In this document: one piece after another, positions 13,054-36,948 of the stretch
How positions within the stretch are numbered: position 1 is the stretch's first letter
Layout: every line of letters starts with the position of its first letter
Source: a plasmid
Sequence record: CP121101.1
Length of the DNA stretch: 64,000 nucleotides
Strand: one strand, 5' to 3'
Notes under the pieces: generated by a model
The model's input: the letters and a program-made list of their open reading frames with translations, nothing else
The model's database searches: none
Told to the model about the DNA's origin: nothing
Position numbers and translations under genes: made by a program

Positions 13054-13159
13054 GGGGTCGTTTGCGGGAGAGGGCGAAATCCTACGCTAAGGCTTTGGCC
13101 AACGATATTCTCCGGTAAGATTGATGTGTTCCCAGGGGATAGGAGAAGTCGCTTGATAT

Positions 13160-13998
13160 CTAGTATGACGTCTGTCGCACCTGCTTGATCGCGGCCGCGA
13201 TAGCTAGATCGCGTTGCTCCTCTTCTCCATCCGCGTTCCAAGCTGCGGAAAGGCACCCATAAGCGTACGCCTGGTCGAGCAGGCGACGCGGATCGACGTC
13301 CAGCGCACGAGAGAATGCGTCCGCCATCTGTGCAATGCGTCTAGGATCGAGACAAAGGTCGTCTCTGTCAGCCGGATCGTAGAACATATTGGCGGCGCCA
13401 AAGCCCACTTCACCGACCAGACCGACGGGATCTATCACCAGCCAGCCGCGACTGGAGAACATGATGTTTTCATGATGCAGATCGCCATGTAGCCCACCAG
13501 TTCCGAGGCATTGCTCATCATTTGATCGGCTATAATCGCCGCGTGGACGTAGTCAGTTTGACAACCTGCGTTTTGATCATCGCGCGCCCGCTGAAACAAA
13601 GCTGCAAAGCGATCCCGGATCGGGAGAAGGGCAGAAGGCAGGGGTTCCTCAGATGCGGCATACAGCTTCGCCATTAGTTCCGCTGCAATTTCGGTCGCCT
13701 GGTAGTCGCCGTGCTCGGCAACGATGTGAGAGAGCATTCGCTCCCCGGCATATTCGAGCAACATCAGATTGTTCTCACGACCGAGCAACCGGACTGCTCC
13801 CCTCCCATTGCGCCATACCAGATAGTCGGCCCCGCGCAGTTCATCAGCAATGTCTTCTATAGGTTTCAATCCCTTGACGATTGCAGGAGTCCCGTCTGGC
13901 AATGAAACTTTCCAAACGAGGCTGGAAAAGGTGTCCGCAATGAGAACAGGTTGCGAAACGTGCCAATGAGCAGGAAAAACAGGCGGCATGAACATCAA
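13160..13998 (-). pseudogene. strB: aminoglycoside 6-phosphotransferase APH(6)-Id (strB), frameshift near 13440-13460
   Basis: ORFs 13435..13998 and 13160..13462 together reproduce StrB. The frame is lost at NASEL|RGLHGDLHHENIMFSSRGW. Confidence 0.8.
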
Positions 13999-14491
13999 AA
14001 CCCCAAGTCAGAGGGTCCAATCGCAGATAGAAGGCAAGGCGTTCGCGGTCGGGGGCTTCGATCCCCAATACATTGAATAGGACAGCGAAGGCGCGCTCTG
14101 CTTCATCTGGCGCTGCCCAGTTCTCTTCGGCGTTAGCAATCATGAGTGCCAAATCGGCATAGCGATCTGCTGTTCCGAGCCGCCCAAGGTCGATCAGACC
14201 CGTGCATTGAGTTTTAGGGTCCACCATGAAGTTTTAGGGCCCACCATGAAGTTCGGCATGCAGGGATCAGCTGCCATGGCAAAAGAAGTCCATATCGGCA
14301 TTGCGCTCTTGCGTCGAGCCGCTCAAACGGTAGCTCTCGTTCGACACGAGCCAAAAGCAAATCGAGCTGCGCGTACTCTTGAAGAAGGCATGCCCGTCAC
14401 CACGTCGAAAAACAAAATCACCAGATTCTCCGCCTCTGACAGGCAACCAGTCAGAATGCGATTCACCAAAAAAAATATTAGTTCGATTCAA
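13995..14491 (-). pseudogene. strA: aminoglycoside 3''-phosphotransferase APH(3'')-Ib (strA) remnant: about 320-bp internal deletion plus a 19-bp imperfect tandem duplication at 14222-14262
   Basis: The N-terminal 36 aa (14384-14491) and the C-terminal MVDPKT...LDPLTWG (ORF 13844..14227) are present. The residue 40-147 region is absent. The duplication is ggtccaccatgaagtttta / gggcccaccatgaagtt. Confidence 0.7.
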
Positions 14492-14556
14492 TGGAGGTTC
14501 CTTCAGTTTTCTGATGAAGCGCGGAGGTGGCTCAACCTGCGAAAAGAAACGAGTTG

Positions 14557-15171
14557 CTACGTAAGTCCGAGAACATGCTTTCCATGGTCTCTGAGCTCGC
14601 CTTTGGGACCGACATATCGGTAGAGAGTGACGCGCTCGATGCCGAGTTCCTTGCAGAGATCGGAAACTGAAGTATCGCGCTGGGCCATGGCGGCTTGCGC
14701 GAGACGCACCTGAGCTTTGGTGAGCGCGAATTTTCGTCCGCCCTTGCGACCGCGCGCTCTCGCGGAGGCGAGACCCGCCATGGTGCGCTCTCGGATCAGA
14801 TCCCGCTCGAACTCGGCCAAGGTGGCGAAGATTCCGAACACCATGCGACCGGACGCAGTCGTGGTGTCGATCTGAGCGCCCTTTCCAGTCAGAACCCGCA
14901 GGCCGATCTTGCGGTCTGACAGCTCCTTCACCGTGTTGACCAGATGGGCAAGCGATCGTCCGAGGCGATCGAGCTTCCAGACCACCAGCACATCGCCGTC
15001 ACGCAATGACTTGAGGCAGGCAGTCAAGCCAGGGCGATCATCACGACCGCCGGAAGCAAGATCATCATAGATATTGTCCCGTTCGACACCTGCGGCGCGC
15101 AAGGCGTCGTGCTGCAGGTCGAGAGACTGCGAGCCATCGGCTTTGGAGACGCGGGCATATCCGATCAGCAT
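14557..15171 (-). CDS. tnpR: Tn5393 resolvase TnpR (serine recombinase)
   Basis: 204 aa, MLIGYARVSKADGSQSLDLQ... Transcribed divergently from tnpA. Confidence 0.85.
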   Translation of the reverse strand: MLIGYARVSKADGSQSLDLQHDALRAAGVERDNIYDDLASGGRDDRPGLTACLKSLRDGDVLVVWKLDRLGRSLAHLVNTVKELSDRKIGLRVLTGKGAQIDTTTASGRMVFGIFATLAEFERDLIRERTMAGLASARARGRKGGRKFALTKAQVRLAQAAMAQRDTSVSDLCKELGIERVTLYRYVGPKGELRDHGKHVLGLT

Positions 15172-15296
15172 GTATCACAAACGTTGGTTTGAGGCGGCGC
15201 TTCGGCCACGATTGCATTGACCTCTGGAAATGTATCTCAACCAGCTTCATAAACAAAGCGTCTTGAACGCTATCAGATTTTGAAAAAGGAACATGT
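15172..15296. promoter_or_regulatory. putative res site and divergent promoters between tnpR and tnpA (Tn5393)
   Basis: Position only. This is the 125-bp divergent intergenic region typical of this subgroup. Confidence 0.4.
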
Positions 15297-17924
15297 ATGC
15301 CGCGTCGCGTCACTCTAACCGATCGGCAGAAAGACGCGCTGTTGCGCTTGCCGACTTCACAGACGGATTTGCTCAAGCACTATACGCTGAGTGATGAAGA
15401 CCTTGGGCATATCAGGCTGCGTCGGCGCGCTCACAACAGGTTCGGCTTCGCCCTGCAATTGTGTGTCCTGCGCTATCCCGGCCGGGTGCTGGCTCCAGGC
15501 GAACTGATCCCTGCAGAGGTCATCGAATTTATCGGAGCGCAGCTTGGCCTGGGTGCCGACGATCTCGTAGACTATGCTGCCCGCGAGGAAACACGGCACG
15601 AGCATCTTGCCGAGTTACGGGGGCTCTACGGCTTCCGCACCTTCTCCGGACGTGGTGCGAGCGAGCTGAAGGAATGGTTGTTCCGAGAAGCCGAGATGGC
15701 GGTGTCGAACGAGGATATCGCCCGTCGCTTCGTAGCCGAGTGCCGACGCACCCGCACTGTCCTTCCCGCGACATCCACGATCGAGCGGCTTTGTGCCGCG
15801 GCTCTCGTCGATGCCGAGCGACGCATCGAGACGAGGATCGCCAGTCGGCTGCCTATGTCGATCCGAGAACAGTTGCTGGCATTGCTCGAGGAGACGGCTG
15901 ATGATCGGGTGACCCGTTTTGTGTGGCTGCGCCAGTTCGAGCCTGGCTCGAACTCTTCGTCGGCCAACCGGCTGCTCGACCGGCTCGAATATCTGCAACG
16001 CATCGATCTCCCCGAGGATCTGCTTGCCGGCGTTCCTGCCCATCGGGTGACTCGTCTGCGCAGGCAGGGTGAACGGTATTATGCCGACGGCATGCGCGAT
16101 CTCCCGGAGGACAGGCGGCTTGCGATCTTGGCTGTTTGCGTCTCGGAATGGCAGGCGATGTTGGCCGACGCAGTGGTCGAAACCCACGACCGGATCGTCG
16201 GCCGTCTCTACCGTGCTTCGGAGCGTATTTGCCATGCAAAGGTCGCAGACGAAGCGGGGGTGGTGCGTGACACCCTGAAATCCTTCGCCGAGATCGGGGG
16301 CGCCCTGGTCGATGCACAGGATGATGGCCAGCCGCTGGGCGATGTCATCGCGAGTGGGTCAGGGTGGGACGGCTTAAAAACCCTTGTTGCAATGGCAACC
16401 AGGCTGACCGCCACCATGGCCGACGATCCGCTCAATCATGTGCTCGACGGTTATCACCGCTTCCGCCGATACGCTCCACGCATGTTGCGCCTGCTCGATC
16501 TGCGAGCTGCGCCCGTTGCACTGCCGCTTCTGGAAGCGGTGACGGCCCTTCGTACCGGTTTGAACGATGCCGCGATGACCAGCTTCTTGCGGCCCAGCTC
16601 GAAATGGCATCGCCACCTTCGGGCCCAGAGGGCTGGCGACGCTCGCCTATGGGAGATCGCGGTGCTGTTCCATCTGCGCGATGCGTTCCGCTCCGGAGAT
16701 GTCTGGCTTACTAGGTCCCGGCGCTATGGCGATCTGAAACACGCACTCGTTCCGGCACAATCCATCGCGGAAGGCGGTCGTCTCGCTGTGCCATTGCGGC
16801 CGGAGGAATGGCTGGCAGACCGGCAAGCTCGCCTCGACATGCGGTTGCGCGAGCTTGGCCGTGCCGCTCGCGCAGGCACGATCCCGGGCGGGTCGATTGA
16901 AAACGGCGTTCTGCATATCGAGAAACTCGAAGCCGCCGCGCCGACAGGCGCCGAAGATCTGGTGCTCGATCTCTACAAGCAGATCCCGCCCACGCGCATC
17001 ACCGATCTCCTGCTGGAGGTGGATGCGGCGACCGGCTTCACCGAAGCGTTCACCCATCTGCGCACAGGAGCACCCTGCGCTGACCGGATCGGGCTAATGA
17101 ACGTTATCTTGGCGGAAGGGATCAACCTCGGCTTGCGCAAAATGGCGGATGCGACAAACACCCACACCTTCTGGGAATTGATCCGCATTGGACGGTGGCA
17201 TGTCGAGGGCGAAGCCTATGACCGGGCGCTGGCCATGGTGGTCGAGGCACAGGCAGCGTTACCCATGGCCCGGTTCTGGGGCATGGGCACGTCGGCTTCG
17301 AGCGACGGACAGTTCTTCGTCGCTACAGAGCAAGGTGAGGCCATGAACCTGGTCAACGCGAAATATGGCAATACCCCGGGCCTGAAAGCCTATAGCCACG
17401 TCTCCGACCAATATGCGCCGTTCGCAACCCAGGTGATTCCTGCAACGGCAAGCGAAGCGCCTTACATCCTCGATGGCCTGCTGATGAACGATGCTGGACG
17501 CCATATCCGCGAGCAGTTCACCGACACGGGCGGCTTCACCGATCACGTCTTTGCCGCATGTGCCATTCTCGGCTACCGGTTCGCTCCGCGCATCCGCGAC
17601 CTGCCATCCAAACGGCTCTACGCGTTCAATCCGTCGGCCGCCCCGGCGCACCTGCGAGCGTTGATCGGCGGAAAGGTCAACCAAGCCATGATCGAGCGCA
17701 ATTGGCCCGACATCCTGCGCATCGCCGCCACCATTGCTGCCGGGACCGTCGCGCCAAGCCAGATTCTGCGGAAACTCGCCTCCTATCCGCGGCAGAACGA
17801 GCTCGCGACAGCCCTGCGGGAAGTCGGTCGCGTCGAGCGCACCCTGTTCATGATCGACTGGATTCTGGATGCCGAACTCCAACGGGGAACCGCAGAATTC
17901 GGAAAAAATCGTACGCTAAGCTAA
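15297..17924 (+). pseudogene. tnpA: Tn3-family transposase TnpA (Tn5393-type), 3'-truncated at 17883 by the Tn1721-type IR
   Basis: 875-aa ORF with conserved Tn3-family C-terminal motifs ([33 protein letters not shown]). The last 13 codons and the stop come from the adjacent IR, and about 100 aa are missing. Confidence 0.8.
17884..17920 (+). repeat. Tn501/Tn1721-type terminal inverted repeat, left end (GGGGAACCGCAGAATTCGGAAAAAATCGTACGCTAAG)
   Basis: Matches the 38-bp IR of the Tn21/Tn501/Tn1721 subgroup. The same IR is inverted at 44109..44146. Confidence 0.75.
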
Positions 17925-19117: not shown

Positions 19118-19164
19118 TAAGCTGCTTATTGATGTATCAGTAAGCTGCTTATTGATGTATCAGT
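19118..19164. repeat. perfect tandem duplication of about 24 bp (GCTGCTTATTGATGTATCAGTAA x2)
   Basis: Direct reading. Lies about 215 bp outside the Tn402 IRt. Confidence 0.6.
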
Positions 19165-19518
19165 AAGCATGCCGGCAGCCATTGCGCTTGATATAATACT
19201 ACCCCATATGAGCAAGAGTATTTTCACGGAAAAGCTAGCAGCCAATTTCGGCCTCGCGGCCTTCCCGCTTCTCAATTGAGCATATAATTTTTCCGCAGCC
19301 AAAACCTGCTCAGGTTCAGGCTTGGTCCTTACAGACTGGTATTCAACAATCGGCTAACTGATGTCAGGCAGGGCCGCTGTCATTTTCAGAAGACGACTGC
19401 ACCAGTTGATTGGGCGTAATGGCTGTTGTGCAGCCAGCTCCTGACAGTTCAATATCAGAAGTGATCTGCACCAATCTCGACTATGCTCAATACTCGTGTG
19501 CACCAAAGCGAGGTGAGC

Positions 19519-21202
19519 ATGGCGACGGACACCCCACGGATTCCAGAACAAGGCGTGGCCACTCTGCCTGATGAGGCTTGGGAGCGTGCGCGCCGTCGTG
19601 CGGAGATCATCAGTCCGTTGGCGCAGTCGGAGACGGTCGGGCACGAAGCGGCCGATATGGCGGCTCAGGCGCTGGGCTTGTCTCGGCGCCAGGTATACGT
19701 TCTGATCCGGCGTGCCCGGCAAGGCAGCGGCCTCGTGACGGATCTGGTGCCCGGCCAGTCCGGTGGAGGTAAAGGTAAGGGGCGCTTGCCGGAACCGGTC
19801 GAGCGCGTCATCCACGAGCTACTGCAAAAGCGGTTCCTGACCAAGCAGAAACGCAGCCTAGCGGCCTTTCACCGCGAAGTCACTCAGGTGTGCAAGGCTC
19901 AAAAACTGCGAGTGCCGGCGCGCAATACCGTGGCCTTACGGATCGCTAGCCTTGACCCGCGCAAGGTCATCCGCCGGCGGGAAGGCCAGGATGCCGCTCG
20001 TGACCTACAAGGTGTGGGCGGCGAGCCTCCTGCCGTGACCGCGCCGCTGGAGCAGGTGCAGATAGACCATACGGTCATCGACCTGATCGTGGTCGATGAC
20101 CGCGACCGGCAACCTATTGGCCGCCCGTACCTGACCCTCGCCATCGACGTGTTCACCCGCTGCGTGCTCGGCATGGTCGTCACGCTGGAAGCGCCGTCTG
20201 CCGTTTCGGTTGGCCTGTGCCTCGTGCATGTCGCCTGCGACAAGCGCCCTTGGCTGGAAGGACTGAACGTGGAAATGGATTGGCAGATGAGCGGCAAGCC
20301 CTTGCTGCTCTACCTAGACAACGCGGCCGAGTTCAAGAGCGAGGCCCTGCGCCGGGGTTTGCGAGCAGCATGGCATCCGGCTGGACTATCGCCCGCTGGG
20401 ACAGCCGCACTATGGCGGCATCGTGGAACGGATCATCGGCACGGCGATGCAGATGATTCACGACGAACTGCCGGGAACGACCTTCTCCAACCCTGACCAG
20501 CGCGGCGACTACGATTCCGAAAACAAGGCCGCCCTGACGCTGCGCGAGCTAGAGCGCTGGCTCACATTGGCGGTCGGCACCTACCACGGTTCGGTGCACA
20601 ACGGCCTGCTCCAACCGCCGGCCGCGCGCTGGGCCGAGGCCGTGGCGCGTGTCGGCGTACCGGCCGTCGTCACACGCGCTACTTCGTTCCTGGTCGATTT
20701 TCTGCCGATCCTCCGGCGCACGCTGACCCGCACCGGCTTTGTCATCGACCACATCCACTACTACGCCGATGCGCTCAAGCCGTGGATTGCGCGGCGTGAA
20801 CGCTGGCCGTCCTTTCTGATCCGGCGCGATCCGCGCGACATCAGCCGTATCTGGGTCCTGGAACCGGAGGGACAGCACTACCTGGAAATTCCCTACCGTA
20901 CCTTGTCGCACCCGGCTGTCACCCTCTGGGAACAACGGCAGGCGCTGATGAAATTGCGGCAGCAAGGGCGCGAACAGGTGGATGAGTCGGCGTTGTTCCG
21001 CATGATCGACCAGATGCGCAAAATCGTGACCACCGCGCAGAAGACCACGCGCAAGGCGCGGCGCGACGCAGATCGACGCCAGCATCTCAAGGCAACGGCA
21101 CCGCCTGTCAAAGCCACGCCACCACCGGACGCTGACATGGATGACCAGCAGGCGGACAACCAGCCGCCCGCCAAACCGTTCGACCAGATTGAGGAGTGGT
21201 AG
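19519..21202 (+). pseudogene. tniA: Tn402 transposase TniA, +1 frameshift (extra T near 20357)
   Basis: MATDTPRIPEQ... start. The frame is lost at RRG|CEQHGIRLDYRP and resumes in ORF 20423..21202. Confidence 0.8.
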
Positions 21203-22113
21203 CCGTGGAAGAATATCCCATCATCGAGCTGTCCCACCTGCTGCCGGCGGCGCAGGGATTGGCCCGGCTGCCGGCGGACGAGCGCATCCAACGCCTTCGC
21301 GCCGACCGCTGGATCGGCTACCCCCGCGCGGTCGAGGCGCTGAACCGGCTGGAAACCCTGTATGCGTGGCCAAACAAGCAACGCATGCCCAACCTGCTGC
21401 TGGTCGGCCCGACCAACAACGGCAAGTCGATGATCGTCGAGAAGTTCCGGCGCACGCATCTGGCCAGCGCCGATGCCGACCAGGAGCACATCCCGGTGCT
21501 GGTCGTGCAGATGCCGTCCGAGCCGTCTGTGATCCGCTTCTACGTCGCGCTGCTCGCGGCGATGGGTGCGCCATTGCGACCGCGCCCACGACTGCCGGAA
21601 ATGGAGCAACTGGCGCTGGCACTGCTGCGCAAGGTCGGCGTGCGCATTTTGGTGATCGACGAGTTGCACAACGTCCTGGCTGGTAACAGCGTCAACCGCC
21701 GGGAATTCCTCAATCTGCTGCGCTTCCTCGGCAACGAACTGCGCATCCCACTGGTCGGGGTTGGCACGCGCGACGCCTATCTGGCCATCCGCTCGGATGA
21801 CCAGTTGGAAAACCGCTTCGAGCCGATGATGCTGCCGCTGTGGGAGGCCAACGACGATTGCTGCTCACTGCTGGCCAGCTTCGCCGCTTCGCTTCCTCTG
21901 CGGCGACCCTCGTCGATTGCCACGCTGGACATGGCCCGCTACCTGCTCACACGCAGCGAGGGCACCATAGGCGAACTGGCGCACTTGCTGATGGCAGCGG
22001 CCATCGTCGCCGTGGAGAGCTGCGAGGAAGCGATCAACCATCGCACGCTCAGCATGGCCGATTACACCGGTCCCAGCGAGCGGCGGCGGCAATTCGAGCG
22101 GGAACTGATGTGA
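21196..22113 (+). CDS. tniB: Tn402 TniB AAA+ transposition ATPase
   Basis: 305 aa, Walker A GPTNNGKS. Confidence 0.8.
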   Translation: MVAVEEYPIIELSHLLPAAQGLARLPADERIQRLRADRWIGYPRAVEALNRLETLYAWPNKQRMPNLLLVGPTNNGKSMIVEKFRRTHLASADADQEHIPVLVVQMPSEPSVIRFYVALLAAMGAPLRPRPRLPEMEQLALALLRKVGVRILVIDELHNVLAGNSVNRREFLNLLRFLGNELRIPLVGVGTRDAYLAIRSDDQLENRFEPMMLPLWEANDDCCSLLASFAASLPLRRPSSIATLDMARYLLTRSEGTIGELAHLLMAAAIVAVESCEEAINHRTLSMADYTGPSERRRQFERELM

Positions 22114-23333
22114 AGCCAGCGCCACGCTGGCCACTGCATCCGGCTCCCAGGGAAGGCGAAGCCGAAGCCTTGTCTTCGTGGCTCAACCGCGTGGCCCTTT
22201 GCTATCACATGGAGGTGTCCGAGCTGCTGGAGCACGATCTTGGTCACGGTCAGGTTGATGACCTGGACACCGCGCCACCACTGGCGCTGCTGGAGATGCT
22301 CTCCCTGCGGAGCGGCATCGAGCCGGATCGGCTGCGTTGCATGAGTTTCGCCGGCTGGGTGCCTTGGCTACTGGACAGTCTTGATGATCAGATTCCAGAT
22401 GCATTGGAAACCTATGCGTTCCAGCTCTCGGTGCTGCTGCCGAAACTCCGCCGTAGGACGCGATCCATCACGAGCTGGCGTGCCTGGCTGCCCAGCCAGC
22501 CGATACATCGCGCCTGTCCGCTCTGTCTGAACGACCCGGCAAACCAAGCCGTACTGCTTGCATGGAAGCTGCCCCTGATGCTGAGCTGCCCGCTGCATGG
22601 CTGCTGGCTGGAATCCTATTGGGGCGTGCCAGGGCGGTTTCTCGGCTGGGAGAACGCCGACGCCGAACCGCGCACCGCCAGCGACGCGATTGCGGCGATG
22701 GACCAGCGTACCTGGCAGGCACTGACAACCGGTCACGTGGAGCTGCCGCGCCGACGCATCCACGCTGGATTGTGGTTTCGGCTGCTACGCACGCTGCTCG
22801 ATGAGCTGAACACCCCGCTTTCGGCGTGCGGAACCTACGCGGGGTATCTCCGCCAAGTCTGGCAAGGCTGCGGGCATCCGCTGCGTGCTGGGCAAAGTCT
22901 GTGGCGACCGTATGAAACCCTGAACCCGGCAGTACGGTTGCAGATGCTGGAGGCAGCGGCAGCGGCAATCAGCTTGATTGAGGTGAGGGATATAAGCCCG
23001 CCAGGCGAGCATGCAAAGCTGTTCTGGTCCGAGCCCCAAACCGGGTTCACCAGTGGTCTGCCGGCGAAAGCGCCGAAGCCCGAACCCGTCAATCACTGGC
23101 AACGGGCGGTCCAAGCTATCAGTGAGGCGATCATTGAAGCGCGGCACAACCCCGAGACGGCGCGCTCGCTGTTCGCCTTGGCTTCCTATGGTCGGCGCGA
23201 CCCAGCTTCCCTGGAACAGTTGCGAGCCACCTTTGCAAAGGAAGGCATCCCCCCGGAATTTCTGTCACATTACGAGCCTGATGGACCCTTTGCATGTCTT
23301 AGACAGAATGACGGGTTAAGTGACAAATTTTGA
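22110..23333 (+). CDS. tniQ: Tn402 TniQ
   Basis: GTG start overlapping the tniB stop. VKPAPRWPLHPAPREGEA... Part of track ORF 21840..23333. Confidence 0.75.
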   Translation: MKPAPRWPLHPAPREGEAEALSSWLNRVALCYHMEVSELLEHDLGHGQVDDLDTAPPLALLEMLSLRSGIEPDRLRCMSFAGWVPWLLDSLDDQIPDALETYAFQLSVLLPKLRRRTRSITSWRAWLPSQPIHRACPLCLNDPANQAVLLAWKLPLMLSCPLHGCWLESYWGVPGRFLGWENADAEPRTASDAIAAMDQRTWQALTTGHVELPRRRIHAGLWFRLLRTLLDELNTPLSACGTYAGYLRQVWQGCGHPLRAGQSLWRPYETLNPAVRLQMLEAAAAAISLIEVRDISPPGEHAKLFWSEPQTGFTSGLPAKAPKPEPVNHWQRAVQAISEAIIEARHNPETARSLFALASYGRRDPASLEQLRATFAKEGIPPEFLSHYEPDGPFACLRQNDGLSDKF

Positions 23334-23379
23334 CGGCCAGAATTTTCCGGCGCACACTGTCACATAATCGAACGTATAC

Positions 23380-24018
23380 GTGACGGGTGAAAAGGTGCTG
23401 ATCGGCTACATGCGGGTATCGAAGGCGGACGGATCCCAGTCCACCAATTTGCAACGCGATGCGCTCATCGCCGCTGGTGTGAGCCTTGCGCACCTTTACG
23501 AGGATCTGGCCTCGGGCAGGCGCGATGATCGCCCAGGGTTGGCTGCTTGCCTGAAGGCGCTTCGTGAAGGGGACACGCTGATCGTGTGGAAGCTCGATCG
23601 GCTTGGCCGTGATCTGCGCCACCTGATCAACACCGTGCACGACCTAACTGCGCGTAGCGTGGGCCTGAAGGTCCTGACCGGTCACGGTGCGGCGGTCGAC
23701 ACGACGACTGCCGCCGGCAAGCTTGTGTTCGGTATTTTTGCCGCGCTGGCCGAGTTCGAGCGTGAGTTGATTTCCGAGCGAACAGTCGCTGGACTTATCT
23801 CGGCGCGCGCTCGCGGCAGGAAAGGGGGGCGCCCCTTCAAGATGACCGCCGCCAAGCTACGCCTGGCGATGGCCAGCATGGGGCAACCGGAAACCAAGGT
23901 GGGCGATCTCTGCGAAGAACTCGGGATTACCCGGCAGACGCTCTACCGGCACGTGTCGCCCAAGGGCGAACTGCGGCCAGACGGCGTAAAGCTGCTCTCC
24001 CTCGGTTCAGCCGCATAA
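23380..24018 (+). CDS. tniR: Tn402/Tn5053 resolvase TniR (TniC), serine recombinase
   Basis: (M)LIGYMRVSKADGSQSTNLQRDAL... GTG start at 23380, or alternatively at 23395. Confidence 0.8.
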   Translation: MTGEKVLIGYMRVSKADGSQSTNLQRDALIAAGVSLAHLYEDLASGRRDDRPGLAACLKALREGDTLIVWKLDRLGRDLRHLINTVHDLTARSVGLKVLTGHGAAVDTTTAAGKLVFGIFAALAEFERELISERTVAGLISARARGRKGGRPFKMTAAKLRLAMASMGQPETKVGDLCEELGITRQTLYRHVSPKGELRPDGVKLLSLGSAA

Positions 24019-24112
24019 ATGGAGGCGACCTGGAACGGGGCGCTGTTCAGTGCGGCAACGATCCGATTACCGGTGTCGACCCAGAGCAGCCGTAGAGCTT
24101 TTGGGAAAGCTG

Positions 24113-24180
24113 TCGTTCAACGTTTGACATGAGGGGCGGCCAAGGGCGCCAGCCCTTGGACGTCCCCCTCGATGGAAGGG
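24113..24180 (-). other. attC (59-be) of the aac(6')-Ib cassette
   Basis: Imperfect palindrome gacgtccaagggctggcgcccttggccgcccctc between the gene stop and the GTTGAAC core. Confidence 0.5.
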
Positions 24181-24735
24181 TTAGGCATCACTGCGTGTTC
24201 GCTCGAATGCCTGGCGTGTTTGAACCATGTACACGGCTGGACCATCTGGGGTGGTTACGGTACCTTGCCTCTCAAACCCCGCTTTCTCGTAGCATCGGAT
24301 CGCTCGCAAGTTGCTCGGCGACGGGTCCGTTTGGATCTTGGTGACCTCGGGATCATTGAACAGCAACTCAACCAGTGCTCGAACCAGCTTGGTTCCCAAG
24401 CCTTTGCCCAGTTGTGATGCATTCGCCAGTGACTGGTCTATTCCGCGTACTCCTGGATCGGTTTCTTCTTCCCACCATCCGTCCCCGCTTCCAAGAGCAA
24501 CGTACGACTGGGCATACCCAATCGGCTCTCCATTCAGCATTGCAATGTATGGAGTGACGGACTCTTGCGCTAAAACGCTTGGCAAGTACTGTTCCTGTAC
24601 GTCAGCAAGTGTCGGGCGTGCTTCTTCTCCGCCCCACCACTCGACGATATGAGATCGATTTAGCCACTCATAGAGCATCGCAAGGTCATGCTCAGTCATG
24701 AGGCGCAGTGTGACGGAATCGTTGCTGTTGGTCAC
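24181..24735 (-). CDS. aac(6')-Ib: aminoglycoside 6'-N-acetyltransferase AAC(6')-Ib, wild-type allele (Trp102, Asp179)
   Basis: 184 aa, recognised as AAC(6')-Ib (no alignment was run). ...[10 protein letters not shown]... and ...[11 protein letters not shown]... seen in sequence. Confidence 0.9.
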
Positions 24736-24832
24736 GATGCTGTACTTTGTGATGCCTAACGCCCGAAATAACCGGCGTGCGCTAGCACGTCCGGCGCCGC
24801 AGGCGCGTAGTTAATTGACTTGTTATGTTTGC

Positions 24833-25228
24833 TTATAGCCATACTAACCCTTGAGGTTTAGACTTCAACGATTCCAAACGACTTTGTAGGCTACCGCTAT
24901 GGATTTCCAATTTATGGCCGTCAGGATCGAGCAAGTATAAAGAAAGTCCTTCGCTTCTATTTTGTTTCCATTCAACGACATGTGCTTCGCGAAGCTTTTT
25001 AGTAACTGGTTCGAAATTCTCTTCGGAAACATCAAACGCGATGTGACAGTAATCTTGGCTCGGATGCACTTCGTCACAAGACAAGCAAATCCAAGTAGCC
25101 TCCAAGCTCAGATATGCCCCACTATCCCAGCGGACATGTGCCTTCATTCCTAATAGACGCGTATAGAACTCCACGGAACGTTCAAGGTCACTTACTGCAA
25201 TAGTAATATGATTCAATCCTCGTAACAC
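24833..25228 (-). CDS. fos: FosA-family glutathione S-transferase (fosfomycin resistance) gene cassette
   Basis: 131 aa. Vicinal-oxygen-chelate fold with FosA hallmarks (MLRGLNHITIAVSDL, EWKQNRSEGLSLYLLDPDGHKLEIH). Flanked by attI1 and an attC with a central palindrome. Confidence 0.75.
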   Translation of the reverse strand: MLRGLNHITIAVSDLERSVEFYTRLLGMKAHVRWDSGAYLSLEATWICLSCDEVHPSQDYCHIAFDVSEENFEPVTKKLREAHVVEWKQNRSEGLSLYLLDPDGHKLEIHSGSLQSRLESLKSKPQGLVWL

Positions 25229-25386
25229 TGACTCTCCTCAGCGAACATAACTTTGTTTTAGGGCGACTGCCCTGCTGCGTAACATCGTTGCTGCTCCATA
25301 ACATCAAACATCGACCCACGGCGTAACGCGCTTGCTGCTTGGATGCCCGAGGCATAGACTGTACAAAAAAACAGTCATAACAAGCC
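25229..25386 (-). promoter_or_regulatory. attI1 integration site (copy 1)
   Basis: Canonical 5'-CS sequence ...GGCATAGACTGTACAAAAAAACAGTCATAACAAGCCATG and CCCTAAAACAAAG|TT crossover region. Confidence 0.6.
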
Positions 25387-26400
25387 ATGAAAACCGCCAC
25401 TGCGCCGTTACCACCGCTGCGTTCGGTCAAGGTTCTGGACCAGTTGCGTGAGCGCATACGCTACTTGCATTACAGTTTACGAACCGAACAGGCTTATGTC
25501 CACTGGGTTCGTGCCTTCATCCGTTTCCACGGTGTGCGTCACCCGGCAACCTTGGGCAGCAGCGAAGTCGAGGCATTTCTGTCCTGGCTGGCGAACGAGC
25601 GCAAGGTTTCGGTCTCCACGCATCGTCAGGCATTGGCGGCCTTGCTGTTCTTCTACGGCAAGGTGCTGTGCACGGATCTGCCCTGGCTTCAGGAGATCGG
25701 AAGACCTCGGCCGTCGCGGCGCTTGCCGGTGGTGCTGACCCCGGATGAAGTGGTTCGCATCCTCGGTTTTCTGGAAGGCGAGCATCGTTTGTTCGCCCAG
25801 CTTCTGTATGGAACGGGCATGCGGATCAGTGAGGGTTTGCAACTGCGGGTCAAGGATCTGGATTTCGATCACGGCACGATCATCGTGCGGGAGGGCAAGG
25901 GCTCCAAGGATCGGGCCTTGATGTTACCCGAGAGCTTGGCACCCAGCCTGCGCGAGCAGCTGTCGCGTGCACGGGCATGGTGGCTGAAGGACCAGGCCGA
26001 GGGCCGCAGCGGCGTTGCGCTTCCCGACGCCCTTGAGCGGAAGTATCCGCGCGCCGGGCATTCCTGGCCGTGGTTCTGGGTTTTTGCGCAGCACACGCAT
26101 TCGACCGATCCACGGAGCGGTGTCGTGCGTCGCCATCACATGTATGACCAGACCTTTCAGCGCGCCTTCAAACGTGCCGTAGAACAAGCAGGCATCACGA
26201 AGCCCGCCACACCGCACACCCTCCGCCACTCGTTCGCGACGGCCTTGCTCCGCAGCGGTTACGACATTCGAACCGTGCAGGATCTGCTCGGCCATTCCGA
26301 CGTCTCTACGACGATGATTTACACGCATGTGCTGAAAGTTGGCGGTGCCGGAGTGCGCTCACCGCTTGATGCGCTGCCGCCCCTCACTAGTGAGAGGTAG
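25387..26400 (+). CDS. intI1: class 1 integron integrase IntI1 (intact, 337 aa)
   Basis: Full-length match to IntI1 ([30 protein letters not shown]...LTSER). Confidence 0.95.
25474..25502 (-). promoter_or_regulatory. integron cassette promoter Pc, hybrid type PcH1 (TGGACA-17 bp-TAAACT), inside intI1
   Basis: The reverse complements agttta (25474-79) and tgtcca (25497-502) are separated by 17 bp. Confidence 0.55.
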
Positions 26401-26577
26401 GGCAGCGCAAGTCAATCCTGGCGGATTCACTACCCCTGCGCGAAGGCCATCGGTGCCGCATCGAACGGCCGGTTGCGGAAAGTCCTCCCTGCGTCCGCTG
26501 ATGGCCGGCAGCAGCCCGTCGTTGCCTGATGGATCCAACCCCTCCGCTGCTATAGTGCAGTCGGCTTCTGACGTTCA

Positions 26578-26602
26578 GTGCAGCCGTCTTCTGAAAACGA
26601 CA
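26578..26602 (-). repeat. Tn402 IRi (25 bp), copy 1
   Basis: gtgcagccgtcttctgaaaacgaca is the reverse complement of TGTCGTTTTCAGAAGACGGCTGCAC. Confidence 0.8.
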
Positions 26603-26711
26603 GCAACCCTGAAAAAAATTCTCAAAAAACCGTTCAGTTAACTGGTTGATGAAATCAGCGTTCAGAACCATACTCTTTCATTCAATTAAATGAACGATTC
26701 AGGGTTATCTG

Positions 26712-27302
26712 ATGATTTTTGGGTACTGCCGGATCAGCACCAAAGGGCAAAGTTTTGACCTGCAGGAAGACGCGCTCAAAAACGCCGGTTGTGAACGTGT
26801 TTTTAGAGATATCGCTTCCGGCGCAAAAACCAAAAGACCTGGCCTTGATGATTTACTTGGTCAGCTCAGAGCTGGCGACATCATCGTGGTATATAAACTG
26901 GACCGGCTCGGACGGTCGTTACAGCATTTGGTGCATTTGATGAACCAATTGACCGAACAGCAGATTGGCCTTCGCAGTCTTAACGACCCAGTGGATACCA
27001 CCACGCCACAAGGGCGTCTCATCACGAATGTGTTTGCCTCCATCGCTGAATTTGAACGGGATTTGATTAGGGAGCGCACAAAAGCAGGATTGGCTTCGGC
27101 TCGGGCACGCGGACGCAACGGAGGGCGACCAGCAGGACTTAGCAAAGACGCCCAAAATGTGGCAATAGCGGCAGAAGCATTATACAAGCAAGGCAGTCTC
27201 AGTGCGCAGCAAATTGCCGCACAGCTCAATATCTCCAAGACCACTCTTTATAAATACCTACGACTTCAGGGAGTTGGTATTGGCAGTGTTGGGCTCAGGT
27301 GA
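26712..27302 (+). CDS. serine recombinase (resolvase/invertase family)
   Basis: 196 aa, MIFGYCRISTKGQSFDLQEDAL...VYKLDRLGRS. The upstream region 26606..26711 contains the 10-bp palindrome CAGTTAACTG (a res-like subsite). Confidence 0.8.
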   Translation: MIFGYCRISTKGQSFDLQEDALKNAGCERVFRDIASGAKTKRPGLDDLLGQLRAGDIIVVYKLDRLGRSLQHLVHLMNQLTEQQIGLRSLNDPVDTTTPQGRLITNVFASIAEFERDLIRERTKAGLASARARGRNGGRPAGLSKDAQNVAIAAEALYKQGSLSAQQIAAQLNISKTTLYKYLRLQGVGIGSVGLR

Positions 27303-27306
27303 TGCC

Positions 27307-28644
27307 ATGAACTCAGCGAAGCGCGGCATTGCACAGGAAGTTTTGATTGATCTCTACCATCGATTGGAAGGCTTACCGCCGCGCTGTGCTCAGCGACGTG
27401 ACATCATTGCACAGGCCACAGCCCTCTACGGCATTTCAGAAAGTTCCTTGTACCGACACTTACGCAATTTGTACCAGCCAAAATCCATCCGCCGCAGCGA
27501 TGCGGGTAAACCCAGAGCCATTCCGCAGGCTGAACTGGAACAGTATTGCGAAATCATTGCGGCGCTGAAGATCCGTACGATGAATAAAAATGGCCGTCAT
27601 CTTTCAACAGCCAATGCGATTGCACTGCTGGAGCGCACAGGTGTTGGCTCGGATTATGGGTTCATCAAAGTGCCGGTTGGACGATTGAACAAAGCAACCG
27701 TCAATCGTTACCTGCAGCAATGGGGTTTTAATCCGAAACAAGTACTCAGAGATACGCCTGCGGTCCGGTTCCAAGCCACATATAGCAATGAATGCTGGCA
27801 ATTCGATCTAAGCCCATCTGATTTGAAGCATGTGCAGGAACCGCTCTGGTTTGATCCACAAAAAGGCAGGCCGCTGCTGATGCTCTACAGCGTGGTCGAT
27901 GACCGCAGCGGGGTTTGCTATCAGGAATATCGGAACGTCTATGGCGAGGATACGCCAGCGGCCTTACTGTTTTTGTTCAATGCCATGAGTGCGAAGTCTG
28001 ACAGCGAGTTTCCATTCCGTGGTATCCCGAAAACCATCTATCTGGATAATGGTCCCATCGCTAAAAGCCGTGTATTTCGCAATGTCATGGTATTTTTGGG
28101 CGTTGAGCTGAAAGTCCATGAACCTGCAAGCGCCACTGACAGGCGCAAAACTGCCCGTTCAAAAGGCAAAGTCGAGCGAGCCTTTCGGACAGTCAAAGAA
28201 TGCCATGAAGTGCTCTATCACCTGCGGGAACCCAAAAATGAGGTCGAAGCCAATGACATGCTGCGGGAATACCTAAAGCAATATAACGACCACTCGCACC
28301 GTTTAGAGACTCATTCCCGCATGGAGGACTGGCAACTCAATATTCCGCCTCTTCTGGTATTCAAAGCATGTGCAGCTGGGAGCGATTTTGTGCATTTGCC
28401 AGAGAACCGGAGCAACGTACTGTCGGCATTGATGCCAGGATCAGCGTCGATGGCACCGTTTATGAAATCAGTCCGGAACTTGCCGGTGAACGGGTTGTAC
28501 TCTGGTGGGGGCTGTTTGACGACGAACTATTTGTTGAACATGAAGGCAAGCGGTACGGAGCATATCTTCCAGTCAGCGGTCCTATTCCTCTCTACCGGTA
28601 CCGGAAATTTAAAAAGACTCAGGCTGAGAAAAAAAATTAGATAA
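27307..28644 (+). CDS. Mu-type DDE transposase (TniA/TnsB/Tn552 p480-like); the C-terminal domain continues in an overlapping frame (28368..28640), so a frameshift is likely
   Basis: 480-aa track ORF; ATG at 27307 follows the recombinase stop. DDE-family features (WQFDLSP, YLDNGP). ORF 28368..28640 resembles a Mu-transposase C-terminal domain. Confidence 0.6.
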   Translation: MNSAKRGIAQEVLIDLYHRLEGLPPRCAQRRDIIAQATALYGISESSLYRHLRNLYQPKSIRRSDAGKPRAIPQAELEQYCEIIAALKIRTMNKNGRHLSTANAIALLERTGVGSDYGFIKVPVGRLNKATVNRYLQQWGFNPKQVLRDTPAVRFQATYSNECWQFDLSPSDLKHVQEPLWFDPQKGRPLLMLYSVVDDRSGVCYQEYRNVYGEDTPAALLFLFNAMSAKSDSEFPFRGIPKTIYLDNGPIAKSRVFRNVMVFLGVELKVHEPASATDRRKTARSKGKVERAFRTVKECHEVLYHLREPKNEVEANDMLREYLKQYNDHSHRLETHSRMEDWQLNIPPLLVFKACAAGSDFVHLPENRSNVLSALMPGSASMAPFMKSVRNLPVNGLYSGGGCLTTNYLLNMKASGTEHIFQSAVLFLSTGTGNLKRLRLRKKIR

Positions 28645-28959
28645 ATTAGAAACTTTGGCAAAGTCGCTGAGCTTGCGGGATATTGGGGACGAGCAAAATG
28701 TGGCCATCCTCAAAACGATGCTTAAAACCGTGAATGTTATTGCGGATAAACCGTTTGCAGACCCTGATCCTTATAACGACCTGAGCTACTCAAGTGTACT
28801 CAAAGCAAAGCTCGCCATCGCAGACTATCTCGGTAAGCCACTGGCGCTGTTGCCAAACAGATCGGGACTTTATAGAAGCCATTTTGGATGAAACATTGGA
28901 AAAATCCGTTGTCATGGCACGACTGAAATCGTACTTCCATCCAAAAGGAGATAGCACTC

Positions 28960-29880
28960 ATGCAACTTGAAGTCATGGAGCACTACGGCATTATTAAGTA
29001 TTTTCGGGACGCGGACTATTTCGAAACTGAGCACCAGCGGCGGATCTTTAATCAGCTCAAAAAGGTGATCCCTGAGGGGCAGCTGATTGCATTATCCGGT
29101 GTAGTCGGCAGCGGTAAAACCACGACATTATCACGACTGCAAGACTTACTGGCGAAAGAGAAAAAAGTCATTGTTGCAAAATCGTTGTCTGTCGAGAAGA
29201 CAAAGACCAATCTTGGAACGCTGATCACCGCTCTGTTTTATGATGTCAGCGGAGATAAAGACTATCGGGTACCCAAACTCGGCGAGAAGCGGGAACGTGA
29301 ATTACGCGACTTAATTCAGGATGTCAAAAAGCCAGTGGTGCTGTTAGTGGCGAAGCCCATGATTTGCATCATCGTACGCTGACGGGATTAAAACGGTTGA
29401 TGGAAGTGATCAGAGACGGTGGTGGCAAACTGTCAATTTTATTAGCCGGTCATCCAAAGCTAAAAAATGACTTAAAAGGCCCAACGATGGAAGAAGTAGG
29501 TTATCGGACCATTGTCGTGTCATTAGATGCTATGCAGGGCAACTTGCGCGAGTACGTGTACTGGCTGCTGGACAATTGCACAGATGATAAAACCAAACCC
29601 ACAGATGTCATCGAGGAACAGGCCATCGACTACCTGGTAGAGCGATTGACGACACCATTGCAAATTGAGCAACACTTATCGCTGGCATTGGAAGAAGGTT
29701 TTAATGTGGGTGTGAAACCTATCACGGTTGACGTGTTGGATTTAACCCTGTCCAGACGGATCAATGATATAGAGCCACGTCTTATCCGGCATGGCTACAG
29801 CGAAAAAGTACTGGTGGATCAGTTTCATTACAAACCGGCTGAGCTTCGCTTAAATTTTTTTTTAAAGGTGAGTTGGATGC
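28960..29880 (+). pseudogene. TniB/TnsC-like AAA+ ATPase, frameshift near 29350-29370 across the Walker B (VLLVDEAH) region
   Basis: Walker A GVVGSGKTT in ORF 28960..29382. The continuation is in ORF 29364.. The 3' end is uncertain. Confidence 0.55.
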
Positions 29881-29944
29881 TAATCGGGTCAAAGAAATTA
29901 CGCAGGACTTGCGGGAAGCTGGGCTGCCCATTTAAAGGAACTTT

Positions 29945-30286
29945 ATGTCTGAAAAGATACAGTGGCAGCCGATTAGCATGCTGCCTTTACTTGTTCAAAT
30001 GGTTGAGGAAGTGCACAGCAGTACCCAACAGCAGACCCTCAACCTGGAGAAAGCAAAGGGTAATCCATTTTTGTTTTCGGCCTGTGAGCTAATCAGAACG
30101 GAAAGAGCTTACCAGGAACAGCTGGGTTCGCTGAGTTTATTTCAGCAGCAATGTGAGCGGTGGCTTGCAGAAGACATTCAACCTGAAAACGAAGTGATGG
30201 TCATGGATACGCTGGAGAGACTGTTAGAAATGGACATTATGACGAAAACCGTACTTACGCAACTCAAGTCATTTGTTGGTACCTAA
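29945..30286 (+). CDS. hypothetical protein (113 aa), in a TniQ-like position
   Basis: ORF only. Confidence 0.3.
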   Translation: MSEKIQWQPISMLPLLVQMVEEVHSSTQQQTLNLEKAKGNPFLFSACELIRTERAYQEQLGSLSLFQQQCERWLAEDIQPENEVMVMDTLERLLEMDIMTKTVLTQLKSFVGT

Positions 30287-30436
30287 TGTGAGCCTAGCTA
30301 GATGAATTCAAGCCCGATGGCACAGCGGCAAATCTCATTGGCACTGATTGTGAGCCGAGCACTTGGCTTATTATCAATTAATCTGAGTCGGGAAAACCGG
30401 ATGTAATCAAGCTTGCGGGATTATGTTTGCGAGCCA

Positions 30437-31257
30437 CTACAGGTAGCTATTCATTCGTTCAAGAAAATTCAGCAAGCGCAGCAGCAAGGGGGTCAGGAAG
30501 GAAGCGGACATGCTCACCCCGGCCATCGCCATCATCAGCCGGGTGTACTGCTCGGGAGACAGGCCGAACGTGGTCATCAGGACGAGGGGCGAGACGCTCA
30601 CATAGACCAGGATGGCGGTCACGCTGGCGCTGGTCAGCAAGGCGCGCTGCATGAAGGGGGCCATGCCCAGCAGGGCCAGCGGCGATGCTCCCGCAGGCTG
30701 GCGGGCGGGGCGGGTCTCCTTGAGCAGTCGCAGGTTGACCAGGGCACTGATGGCGGCCACCAGCGCCATGCCCACGAAGATGCCGCGCCACTCGAAGTGC
30801 GACAGGATGAGATAACCGAGTACGGGAGCCAGCACCGAATGATGACGCAGATCACGCCATTGATGAGGGAGAGGGCCATCGCGAGGCGCGCCTGGCTCAG
30901 CACATCCCGCAGCACGGTGAAGGTCATGATGTAGAGCGCTCCAGCGCCCACCCCTTGCCAGAAACGCCCCAGATAAAACTGGGCGATGCCGGTTGCCTCC
31001 GCCGCCACCAGGGAGGCGACCACGAAGATGAGGGCGCCCCCCAGCACCACGGGGCGCCTGCCATGGCGATCCGCCAGCATGCCCCCCGGCAGCACGGTAG
31101 CCGCCATGCCCAGCAGATAGATGGAAAAAGCGGTGTGGATCTGCGCCTCGCTCCCCTGCAGGGTTTGCGCAATGCGGGGGACGGCCACCAGATAGAGATC
31201 GATCCCGAGGGGATAGAGGATGATCATCAGAAAAGTACACAGCAGAAACATACCCAT
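30437..31257 (-). pseudogene. MdtL-like MFS efflux transporter fragment (about 270 of about 390 aa, several frameshifts), at the distal end of the ISCR1-mobilised segment
   Basis: N-terminal homology to MdtL (LYPLGIDLYLVAVPRIAQTLQGSEAQIHTAFSIYLLGMAA...). ORFs 30634..31257 and 30437..31240 overlap in different frames. Confidence 0.55.
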
Positions 31258-31549: not shown

Positions 31550-32893
<1,344 letters not shown>

Positions 32894-33055
32894 TTACCGC
32901 TCAAGCCCCAATTTTAACTGCCGGTCCAGCCTAAACCGCTCTAATAAGGTTCGATTTGGCGGTAAAATCTCTAGCCTGATAGCTCGAGAGATACAAACTG
33001 CCCCACCGCCCCGTTTAAAAGTTGGCAGTGTTGAGCAGTGTTGGATTTGGGGTCG

Positions 33056-34600
33056 TCAGTCAAAGAGACGACTCTGTGATGGATCGAACAGGCTGGGAGT
33101 CAGTGGCGGCGCTCGTTCTGGTGGCAGCTCACGCTGCTTGGCGGCATTCGCCTTGGCTGTTTTCTGTTTCAGATGCTTGAGAATCTGCTCAATGACCTTC
33201 GGATCTTCGATGCTGGCAATCACTTTGACGTGACCGCCGCAGTGTTCGCAGACTTCAATATCAATATTGAAGACTCGCTTGAGGCGTTGCATCCAGGTCA
33301 TGGCGCGGTGGCGCTCTGCAGGACTCTTGTCACGCCAGTTAGTATCGAGACCTTCCGATTTGTCGGGCTTCTTGCCCCGCTTGGCGGGTGTTACTTGAAC
33401 TCGGTGTTTGCTGTTCGGTGCAAAGACGCCGTGGAAGCGTGTGAGGTTGACTCGCGGCTTAGGTACCAACGCAGCGAGTTTGGCGATGAAGTCCAGCGGC
33501 TCGAAGATCACATGGGTGGTGCCATTGCGGTACGGAGTTTTGAGCTCGTAACGCACCTGCCCATTGGCGGTTAATGCCAGACGTTTTTCTGAAACCGCTG
33601 GCCGACTAATGTAGCGACACAAGCGCTCAAGCTTATCCCGCTGATGCGCTTCGGCCATCACACCGGCGTGTAGCGAGAAACCAGCATGGTTGGCTACTCG
33701 ACTGCTTGAGTCGGCTTTATCCTCACGCCCTGGCAAGGTTTGCAGGGTGAAGACTTTGCGCCCTTGCTGGGGGCCGACGGCAATGCGATACGTAACCGAA
33801 GCACCATGTAATTGAGTCAGCGTATCGTCTTCGCCCTCTTCCAGTGTCAACCACGTATTCTCGGCATCACGCTCCAAAATCCCACGCTTTTCCATGCAGC
33901 GAGCGATGCGATGGCTGAGGGTGTGAGCGAGCGTATTCAGCTCATCGTAAGTGGGTGCCTTGACACGATGGAAGCGTTGCTTGCCATAGTCATCTTCGGC
34001 ATAGACACCATCGAGAAACAGCATGTGGTAGTGGACATTGAGATTTAGCGCGGAGCCAAAGCGTTGGATAAGAGTCACTGAGCCAGTTTGTGCAGAGGCT
34101 TTGGTGTAACCGGCTTTTTTGATCAGATGAGTTGAGAGTGTACGATAGACGATACTCAAGACCTGGCCCATCAGCTGGGGATGGCGAGCCAGCAAAAAGC
34201 GTAGCTGGAAAGGAAAGCTGAGCACCCACTGGCGAATGGGCTCCTTGGGGAAGACTTCGTCTATCAGCAGCGCCGCACTCTCGGCCATCCGGCGGGCACC
34301 GCAGCTAGGGCAAAAGCCGCGTCGTTTACAGCTGAAGGCGACCAGACGACGCTCGTGATGACAATCCTCGCAGCGAACCCGCATGAAACCATACTCCAGA
34401 CGGCCACATTGGAGGAGGTCGTTGAATTCTTGTTGGATGTAGCGAGGCAGGTGTTGACCTTGGGCTTCGAGTGAGGCTTTGAAGGCTGGGTAGTGCTGCT
34501 CAACCAGCTGGTAGAGCAGCGTCTGGTCGGGTTGGTGGCGTTCGTAACCGTTTGTTTGAGTGGGCGATTGACTCGCCGTGGCGTTCCTTGCCAGCGACAT
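33056..34600 (-). CDS. ISCR1 transposase (orf513, IS91-like rolling-circle)
   Basis: 514 aa, recognised as the ISCR1 protein (MSLARNATASQSPTQTNGYERHQ...) (no alignment was run). blaMOX lies on the oriIS side, as expected for ISCR1-mobilised genes. Confidence 0.95.
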   Translation of the reverse strand: MSLARNATASQSPTQTNGYERHQPDQTLLYQLVEQHYPAFKASLEAQGQHLPRYIQQEFNDLLQCGRLEYGFMRVRCEDCHHERRLVAFSCKRRGFCPSCGARRMAESAALLIDEVFPKEPIRQWVLSFPFQLRFLLARHPQLMGQVLSIVYRTLSTHLIKKAGYTKASAQTGSVTLIQRFGSALNLNVHYHMLFLDGVYAEDDYGKQRFHRVKAPTYDELNTLAHTLSHRIARCMEKRGILERDAENTWLTLEEGEDDTLTQLHGASVTYRIAVGPQQGRKVFTLQTLPGREDKADSSSRVANHAGFSLHAGVMAEAHQRDKLERLCRYISRPAVSEKRLALTANGQVRYELKTPYRNGTTHVIFEPLDFIAKLAALVPKPRVNLTRFHGVFAPNSKHRVQVTPAKRGKKPDKSEGLDTNWRDKSPAERHRAMTWMQRLKRVFNIDIEVCEHCGGHVKVIASIEDPKVIEQILKHLKQKTAKANAAKQRELPPERAPPLTPSLFDPSQSRLFD

Positions 34601-36864: not shown

Positions 36865-36948
36865 TTTAAGACCCTTAATTGTTGGGATTTGGCTGCATAA
36901 CGCCTGAAATAAGCCGTGCCGCGAAGCGGCATCGGCTTGATTGAATTG

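Follow-up and report, generated by a model that had tools for sequence, protein, structure and literature searches.

Does the integron on the plasmid of sequence record CP121101.1 represent an unusual element with a new fosfomycin-resistance allele and a decaying transposition module, or a familiar element that was damaged when the sequence was assembled? The question concerns positions 19378-26602 of a 64,000-nucleotide stretch of this plasmid (hereinafter, the window), in which, read along the sequence, a terminal inverted repeat (IRt) is followed by tniA, tniB, tniQ, tniR, an aac(6')-Ib cassette, a fos cassette, attI1, the integrase gene intI1 with the cassette promoter (Pc) inside it, and an initial inverted repeat (IRi). 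Judged by its sequence, the region is a Tn402-type class 1 integron carrying two known cassettes, fosC2 and aac(6')-Ib4, and it is ordinary and already known, the same element with intact genes being present in CP180560.1 and CP180565.1. The extra T in tniA and the 3-bp deletion in fosC2 are very probably errors of an assembly polished in 500-bp chunks, and the real plasmid would probably carry an intact tni module and a wild-type fosC2.

The 25-bp inverted repeats expected at the ends of Tn402/Tn5053-family elements are exact matches at both ends of the region, and the hallmarks of class 1 integrons are all in place, namely, intI1, an adjacent attI1, an internal Pc facing the cassettes, and promoterless cassettes each ending in attC (Table 1). 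Nothing resembling qacEdelta1 or sul1 was found in the region between the last attC and tniR, which was read in sequence, and this junction is identical to that in other tni-bearing integrons. The preliminary description of this DNA, which reported a class 1 integron of the Tn402 type that keeps the tni module and both inverted repeats and lacks a 3' conserved segment (3'-CS), thus holds on each of these points. The assignment to known Tn402-type integrons follows from the identity of AAC(6')-Ib4, IntI1, TniB, TniR and the repaired TniA to proteins of public elements of this type: IntI1 is identical to WP_000845048.1 and to the integrases of pLD209 and pKPS30, AAC(6')-Ib4 to that of pLD209, and TniB and TniR, without any repair, to those of p17285-IMP and pIMP69_000369. 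The 5' conserved segment (5'-CS) matches its counterpart in pKPS30 at 100% identity. The aac(6')-Ib gene that had been noticed beside the fos cassette is indeed carried by the second cassette, aacA4, the product of which scores 434 bits on the NCBIfam AAC(6')-Ib model (cut-off 400), and the bottom strand of its attC forms a hairpin (z = -4.1). AAC(6')-Ib4 is the Ser variant (QSLAN), which is linked to gentamicin rather than amikacin modification.

The first cassette could be assigned as well. Its product scores 302.2 bits on the NCBIfam FosC2 model NF000074.1, against a cut-off of 250, whereas the runner-up model, FosG, yields 207.9 bits, which is under its own cut-off, and every other Fos model likewise remains under its cut-off. 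At the nucleotide level, the cassette, including the ribosome-binding site, the GTG start codon and attC, is identical, bar 3 bp, to the fosC2 cassettes of pIMP-HB623 (KM877517) and pSS332-218k (CP071152). The R'' sequence of its attC, ACATAAC, is exactly complementary to GTTATGT, with which the cassette itself starts, and the cassette boundaries are constant across arrays with different neighbours; in its present hybrid context, the attC folds weakly (z = -0.73). In an alignment of the window protein with FosC2 homologues and with the FosA of Pseudomonas aeruginosa, the sequence of which was checked as identical to PDB 1LQK, the Mn2+ ligands (FosA His7, His64 and Glu110), the K+ loop (Ser94, Glu95 and Ser98) and the fosfomycin contacts (Thr9, Lys90, Tyr100 and Arg119; all in FosA numbering) are invariant. 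A non-Fos glyoxalase or a bleomycin-resistance protein was considered and rejected because FosC2 is the best family and all Mn2+ and K+ ligands align, so that the earlier recognition of a FosA-type glutathione transferase cassette in the first position was sound. As to its origin, PMC10352792 cites a proposal that Aliidiomarina shirensis is the source of fosC2, and chromosomal homologues from this species fall in the same protein cluster as FosC2.

The preliminary description left the exact allele of the 131-aa protein to be determined. The allele is fosC2, with 131 of the 132 wild-type residues, and the length reflects the 3-bp difference, an in-frame deletion at about 24854 (AAACC[CTA]TCAAGG) that removes Tyr126 and turns KPYQG into KPQG. 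The deleted residue aligns with FosA Tyr128, which belongs to the putative glutathione/fosfomycin channel, and the conserved C-terminal Tyr is thus absent from the protein as deposited. The second lesion is the extra T at 20358 in tniA (TT to TTT; GGGGTTGC to GGGGTTTGC), as compared to the intact tniA of p17285-IMP and pIMP69_000369, which have the closest intact tni modules (99.5-99.7% identity to the window); the T is extra relative to the reference loci L003 and L005 and to CP180560.1 and CP180565.1. When the extra T is taken out, the 560-aa product is 100% identical to the TniA of p17285-IMP and pIMP69_000369. The module had been described as tniABQR with only a 1-bp frameshift in tniA; the genes and the frameshift are there, but the frameshift is most likely a polishing error, and tniQ additionally contains a 6-bp duplication that extends its product to 407 aa, compared to 405 aa in L005, CP180560.1 and CP180565.1.

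Both lesions turned out to be part of a regular pattern. The window was compared with five independent near-identical references, its parts elsewhere being matched to Shewanella plasmid CP091834, pKPS30, an Escherichia coli IncR plasmid and Aeromonas plasmid pAER-f909, and this comparison yielded 41 small indels, with substitutions almost absent. The spacing between adjacent indels is within 15 bp of a multiple of 500 in 26 of 40 cases, against 2.5 expected (binomial p = 4e-22). Taken modulo 500, the indel positions between 19000 and 44200 cluster at 340-358 (19851, 20358, 24854, 28349, 28851, 29350, 29853, 34345, 34840, 35351, 35846, 37343, 39340, 39841, 42849 and 43857), those between 1 and 11003 cluster around 0, at approximately 483-503 (for instance, 1996, 2502, 3503, 5495, 6495, 6986, 7483, 7997 and 11003), and those between 44395 and 54901 cluster at 393-402. 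The tniA frameshift at 20358 (358 modulo 500) and the fosC2 deletion at 24854 (354 modulo 500) both lie on this grid, separated by 4496 bp, or about nine 500-bp windows, and the next grid event, at 28349, follows the fosC2 deletion after 3495 bp, or about seven such windows. Most of the on-grid events consist in the duplication or loss of 1-6 junction bases, and they frameshift many otherwise conserved genes, such as the Shewanella-type DDE and AAA genes, a second intI1 and the TnAs1 tnpA. A 500-bp lattice of indels unaccompanied by substitutions is not what natural mutation produces, but it is what results when a consensus is built chunk by chunk at a fixed 500 bp. Windowed polishing is known to be prone to errors at the junctions where windows meet. 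Racon works through a sequence in windows of 500 bp, and Raven applies two Racon iterations (bioRxiv 10.1101/2020.08.07.242461). The indels at 22157 (the tniQ duplication), 28629, 41177, 19030 and 11613 are off the grid; the distances between them come loosely close to multiples of 500, which is compatible with a second polishing round, although such events are few.

The deposited form of FosC2 is, moreover, a singleton. Among approximately 15 billion proteins, the exact 131-aa sequence occurs once, on one NCBI contig of 211,418 bp, whereas wild-type FosC2 occurs on 22 contigs; hence, the deletion belongs to the public record as such and is confined to it. No second occurrence of the 131-aa allele was found in PLSDB, the complete E. 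coli genomes, the GTDB representative genomes or the protein collection, and a search of the fos cassette against the complete E. coli genomes gave no match. Exact-pattern scanning of the GTDB representative genomes for the deletion junction gave no match either, nor did scans of the GTDB representative genomes and JGI metagenomes for the junction between the fosC2 attC and aacA4, these collections being too poor in such plasmids to be informative.

Look-up of wild-type FosC2, by contrast, led to two plasmids, CP180560.1 and CP180565.1 (196,803 bp each), which carry the same fosC2-aacA4-tniRQBA element in the same gene order (IRt, tniA, tniB, tniQ, tniR, aacA4, fosC2, intI1, IRi) and are approximately 99.8% identical to the window over 11-14 kb. 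The IRi flank is also the same in both (GCAAC, followed by resolvase, DDE, AAA and MFS genes, blaMOX and ISCR1), and CP180565.1 shares the IRt flank as well (GCCGC, the res remnant, mcp and a Tn3-family tnpA), whereas in CP180560.1, the IRt flank is different (ATGGA). Unlike the window, the sister plasmids encode a 132-aa wild-type FosC2, an intact 560-aa TniA and a 405-aa TniQ. Inside the element, the window differs from both of them at five places only, three of which are on the grid (19851, 20358 and 24854) and two off it (the tniQ duplication and position 25476). Beside IRt, CP180565.1 has 460 bp more of mcp and res sequence than the window, most sister-window differences being on the window's grid; the 460 bp that the window lacks, comprising the 5' portion of the Tn1721-type mcp gene together with the res region beside it, are missing along with one T exactly at the grid position 19353-19358, where a whole polishing window may have been lost. 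The sister plasmids themselves, of equal length but from two assemblies, contain the same fosC2 integron and blaMOX module at two positions, with the IRt flank beside mer genes in the case of ATGGA and beside mcp in the case of GCCGC, which suggests that the integron and module are duplicated within the sister plasmid.

The alternative closest to the deposited sequence is that the indels are real, in which case the window would hold a decaying, immobilized Tn402-type integron with a frameshifted tniA, movable only with Tni proteins supplied in trans, and a FosC2 that lacks Tyr126 and confers little or no fosfomycin resistance. This is how the sequence reads as deposited, class 1 integrons often have tni modules with defects, and the missing Tyr aligns with FosA Tyr128, which is among 16 residues essential for function or structure according to Beharry and Palzkill (2005), as cited in PMC11933065. 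Nevertheless, we consider this scenario improbable, given that both changes fall on the 500-bp grid, that the 131-aa allele is a singleton and that the sister plasmids have intact versions in the same context; furthermore, dozens of other conserved genes in the window have similar grid-positioned lesions with no accompanying substitutions. We give very little credence to the most striking biological possibility, a natural FosC2 without Tyr126 that is encoded where expression is highest, with a promoter exceeding that of the sister plasmids by one step in strength, on a transposon that has newly lost its transposase; were the deletion and the frameshift true, the element would amount to a natural test of the contribution of this Tyr to Fos enzymes. 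Hardly credible at all is the view, implied by the preliminary description, that the cassette is a new, functionally distinct Fos allele meriting its own name. The protein does differ by one residue from every named FosC2 sequence, but the DNA is otherwise 100% identical to fosC2, attC included, the product scores within the FosC2 family, the only difference deletes a conserved Tyr and falls on the artefact grid, and the searches described above returned no second occurrence in PLSDB, complete E. coli genomes, GTDB representatives or the protein collection.

Several considerations weigh against attributing the two lesions to polishing. The artefact is inferred from the indel pattern and the comparisons rather than seen in reads, and both a 3-bp in-frame deletion and a one-base extension of a T run also arise naturally. 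Some indels, namely, those at 22157 in tniQ, 28629, 41177 and 19030, are off the main grid. As a case in point, a 23-bp tandem duplication at 19118-19140, which splits mcp in comparison with the E. coli IncR plasmid, is off the grid as well and is common to CP180565.1, indicating a real mutation, so that at least some of the window's indels are genuine.

A separate question is posed by the cassette promoter. As the preliminary description stated, the sequence as given is PcH1, with TGGACA and TAAACT separated by 17 bp. There is no TGN motif upstream of the -10 box, and IntI1 has R32 and H39; the spacer of P2 is 14 bp, so that P2 is inactive. The Pc variants are reportedly defined in this manner by Jove et al. 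(2010). The -10 box, in which position 25476 lies, reads TAAACT in the window, whereas CP180560.1, CP180565.1 and most other fosC2 integrons have TAAGCT, that is, PcW, and this is the only off-grid substitution inside the element in comparison with the sister plasmids. The window contains two 1.36-kb copies of the 5'-CS, both with PcH1 and identical bar one grid indel. Gene conversion between these copies, a point mutation, or mixing of reads between the repeats are possible explanations. That PcH1 is real, having arisen by gene conversion or recombination with the 5'-CS of the second integron on the same plasmid and raising the expression of fosC2 and aacA4, is a possibility to which we give somewhat less than even chances: the off-grid location of the substitution and the near-identity of the two 5'-CS copies speak for it, but mixing of reads from two 1.36-kb repeats during consensus building would have the same outcome, and a single base cannot tell conversion, mutation and error apart.

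Table 1. Features of the Tn402-type integron in CP121101.1 (window coordinates)
Feature	Position	Strand	Remarks
IRt, 25-bp terminal inverted repeat of the Tn402 family	19378..19402	+	exact match to TGTCATTTTCAGAAGACGACTGCAC
tniA (DDE transposase)	19519..21202	+	split as deposited by the extra T at 20358 into open reading frames 19483-20496 and 20423-21202
tniB (NTP-binding transposition protein)	21205..22113	+	302-aa product identical to TniB of reference L005; TniB family in annotations
tniQ	22110..23333	+	in-frame 6-bp tandem duplication CGAAGC at 22157-22162
tniQ-tniR intergenic region, putative Tn402 res site for TniR	23334..23394		sequence identical to reference L005
tniR (tniC), serine resolvase	23395..24018	+	207-aa product identical to that of reference L005 (WP_003155741.1)
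aacA4 cassette	24121..24759	-	aac(6')-Ib4 gene 24181-24735; attC R'' GCCTAAC at 24186-24180, R' from G 24121
fosC2 cassette	24760..25250	-	gene 24833-25228, 131 aa as deposited; attC R'' ACATAAC at 24829-24823, end at G 24760
attI1 (approximate extent)	25251..25320	-	crossover at AAAG|TTA
intI1, class 1 integron integrase (R32, H39)	25387..26400	+	NCBIfam PRK15417, 799 bits
Pc cassette promoter, PcH1	25474..25502	-	TGGACA (25502-25497), 17 bp, TAAACT (25479-25474)
IRi, 25-bp initial inverted repeat	26578..26602	-	exact match to TGTCGTTTTCAGAAGACGGCTGCAC (reverse strand)

The element has several published relatives. The preliminary description presented the integron type as unusual, given that most clinical class 1 integrons lack tni, but it is not rare: at least 90 plasmids in PLSDB hold at least 80% of the element, and tni-bearing class 1 integrons without the 3'-CS, such as Tn6335 and Tn6336, are well documented. 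A chromosome of Providencia huaxiensis and several further assemblies contain the fosC2-aacA4 array, too. The occurrence of fosC2 in a tni-bearing integron was published in 2015 (PMC10352792), in the case of pIMP-HB623 (KM877517; Wang et al. 2015), in which intI1, fosC2, blaIMP-34, tniR, tniQ, tniB and a remnant of tniA are followed by IS26. Like the window, this plasmid has fosC2 as the first cassette of a tni-bearing class 1 integron lacking the 3'-CS, and the fosC2 cassette and its attC are identical except for the window's 3-bp deletion. However, the second cassette is blaIMP-34 rather than aacA4, tniA is cut by IS26, Pc is PcW with the TGN-10 motif, and the tni module is only about 94% identical to that of the window, indicating a different lineage. 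Further relatives are the integrons of pLD209 (Tn6335, In41), p17285-IMP and pIMP69_000369, in which IRi and IRt are both complete, tniABQR is present, the 3'-CS is missing, and the final cassette, aacA4, adjoins the backbone sequence that it also adjoins in the window. The tni modules of the two blaIMP plasmids, p17285-IMP and pIMP69_000369 (blaIMP-8 or blaIMP-69 with aacA4), are 99.6-99.7% identical to that of the window, and pLD209 shares with it not only AAC(6')-Ib4 and IntI1 but also PcH1. In these integrons, unlike in the window, the first cassette is blaVIM-2 or blaIMP instead of fosC2, and the element is flanked by 5-bp direct repeats. Finally, the E. coli integron in which fosC2 was originally described as a first cassette, in 2010 (AB522969; Wachino et al. 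2010; PMC10352792), has the same cassette first in a class 1 integron, but is of the sul1 type (fosC2-dfrA17-aadA5-qacEdelta1-sul1), with intI1 truncated by IS26 and no tni module.

The flanks of the element call for a qualification of the claim that it is complete. Both inverted repeats and tniABQR are present, but the element is not bounded by 5-bp direct repeats: its left flank is GCCGC and its right flank GCAAC, whereas the comparator copies have AAAAC, GAGGT and CCGCT. Unmatched flanks imply that the two ends stem from different insertion events or that a rearrangement occurred later. A resolvase gene (26712-27302), which belongs to a transposon known from Shewanella plasmids, begins 110 bp from IRi, which lies upstream of it; the empty site is found in Shewanella plasmid CP091834, and thus, the insertion is in a res region with IRi facing the resolvase gene, as is characteristic of the Tn402/Tn5053 family; this orientation fits the res-hunting habit described for these elements (bioRxiv 10.1101/2020.12.23.424275). 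The window does not contain the left half of this Shewanella target, and IRt adjoins a res-like remnant that is also found beside the integron of pIMP69_000369. Simple transposition in situ was rejected on account of the differing flanks and the absent left half. Together with the res-like remnant at IRt and the different IRt flank, ATGGA, in CP180560.1, these observations indicate that the ends of the element were joined by recombination or rearrangement among Tn402-type elements.

If the encoded proteins act as their families do, IntI1 would capture cassettes at attI1, and the Pc inside intI1 would transcribe the promoterless cassettes, fosC2, as the first in the array, presumably being the better expressed. 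As a glutathione transferase dependent on Mn2+ and K+, FosC2 would open the epoxide of fosfomycin, and AAC(6')-Ib4 would acetylate aminoglycosides. TniA, TniB and TniQ would transpose the whole unit into res sites, with TniR resolving the cointegrate. Provided that the tni module is intact, which seems likely, the unit may be mobile and links fosfomycin and aminoglycoside resistance beside blaMOX on an Aeromonas-type plasmid.

For resistance biology, the locus carries little weight, since fosC2, aac(6')-Ib4 and tni-bearing class 1 integrons have all been described. Its practical value pertains to data quality: a resistance-gene caller that works by exact alleles would list the fos gene as a 'novel' variant and the transposase gene as a pseudogene. 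The periodicity of the indels makes any frameshift or short indel in the CP121101.1 record suspect without the reads.

The integron resides in a mosaic resistance island of approximately 31 kb (roughly 13058-44146), which is embedded in a backbone 99.7% identical to that of Aeromonas plasmid pAER-f909 (1-13057 and 44146-56272). The left part of the island (13058-17885) is a Tn5393-type segment with aph(6) and aph(3'') genes, tnpR and tnpA, fused at about 17885 to a Tn1721-type mcp fragment. Immediately beyond IRi, positions 26603-30441 are occupied by a transposon-like module encoding a 196-aa resolvase, a DDE protein, an AAA ATPase and a small open reading frame, which is 99.7% identical to modules of Shewanella xiamenensis and S. 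putrefaciens plasmids, and in every copy seen, the GCAAC junction at IRi is accompanied by blaMOX and ISCR1. The second class 1 integron, at approximately 31550-40743, is of the sul1 type and carries aac(6')-Ib-cr, blaOXA-1, catB3, arr-3, qacEdelta1, sul1, ISCR1 and a blaMOX gene of the CMY-1/MOX family, with PcH1 as its promoter; its IRi (40719-40743) adjoins a 5'-truncated tnpR, which is followed by a TnAs1-type tnpA.

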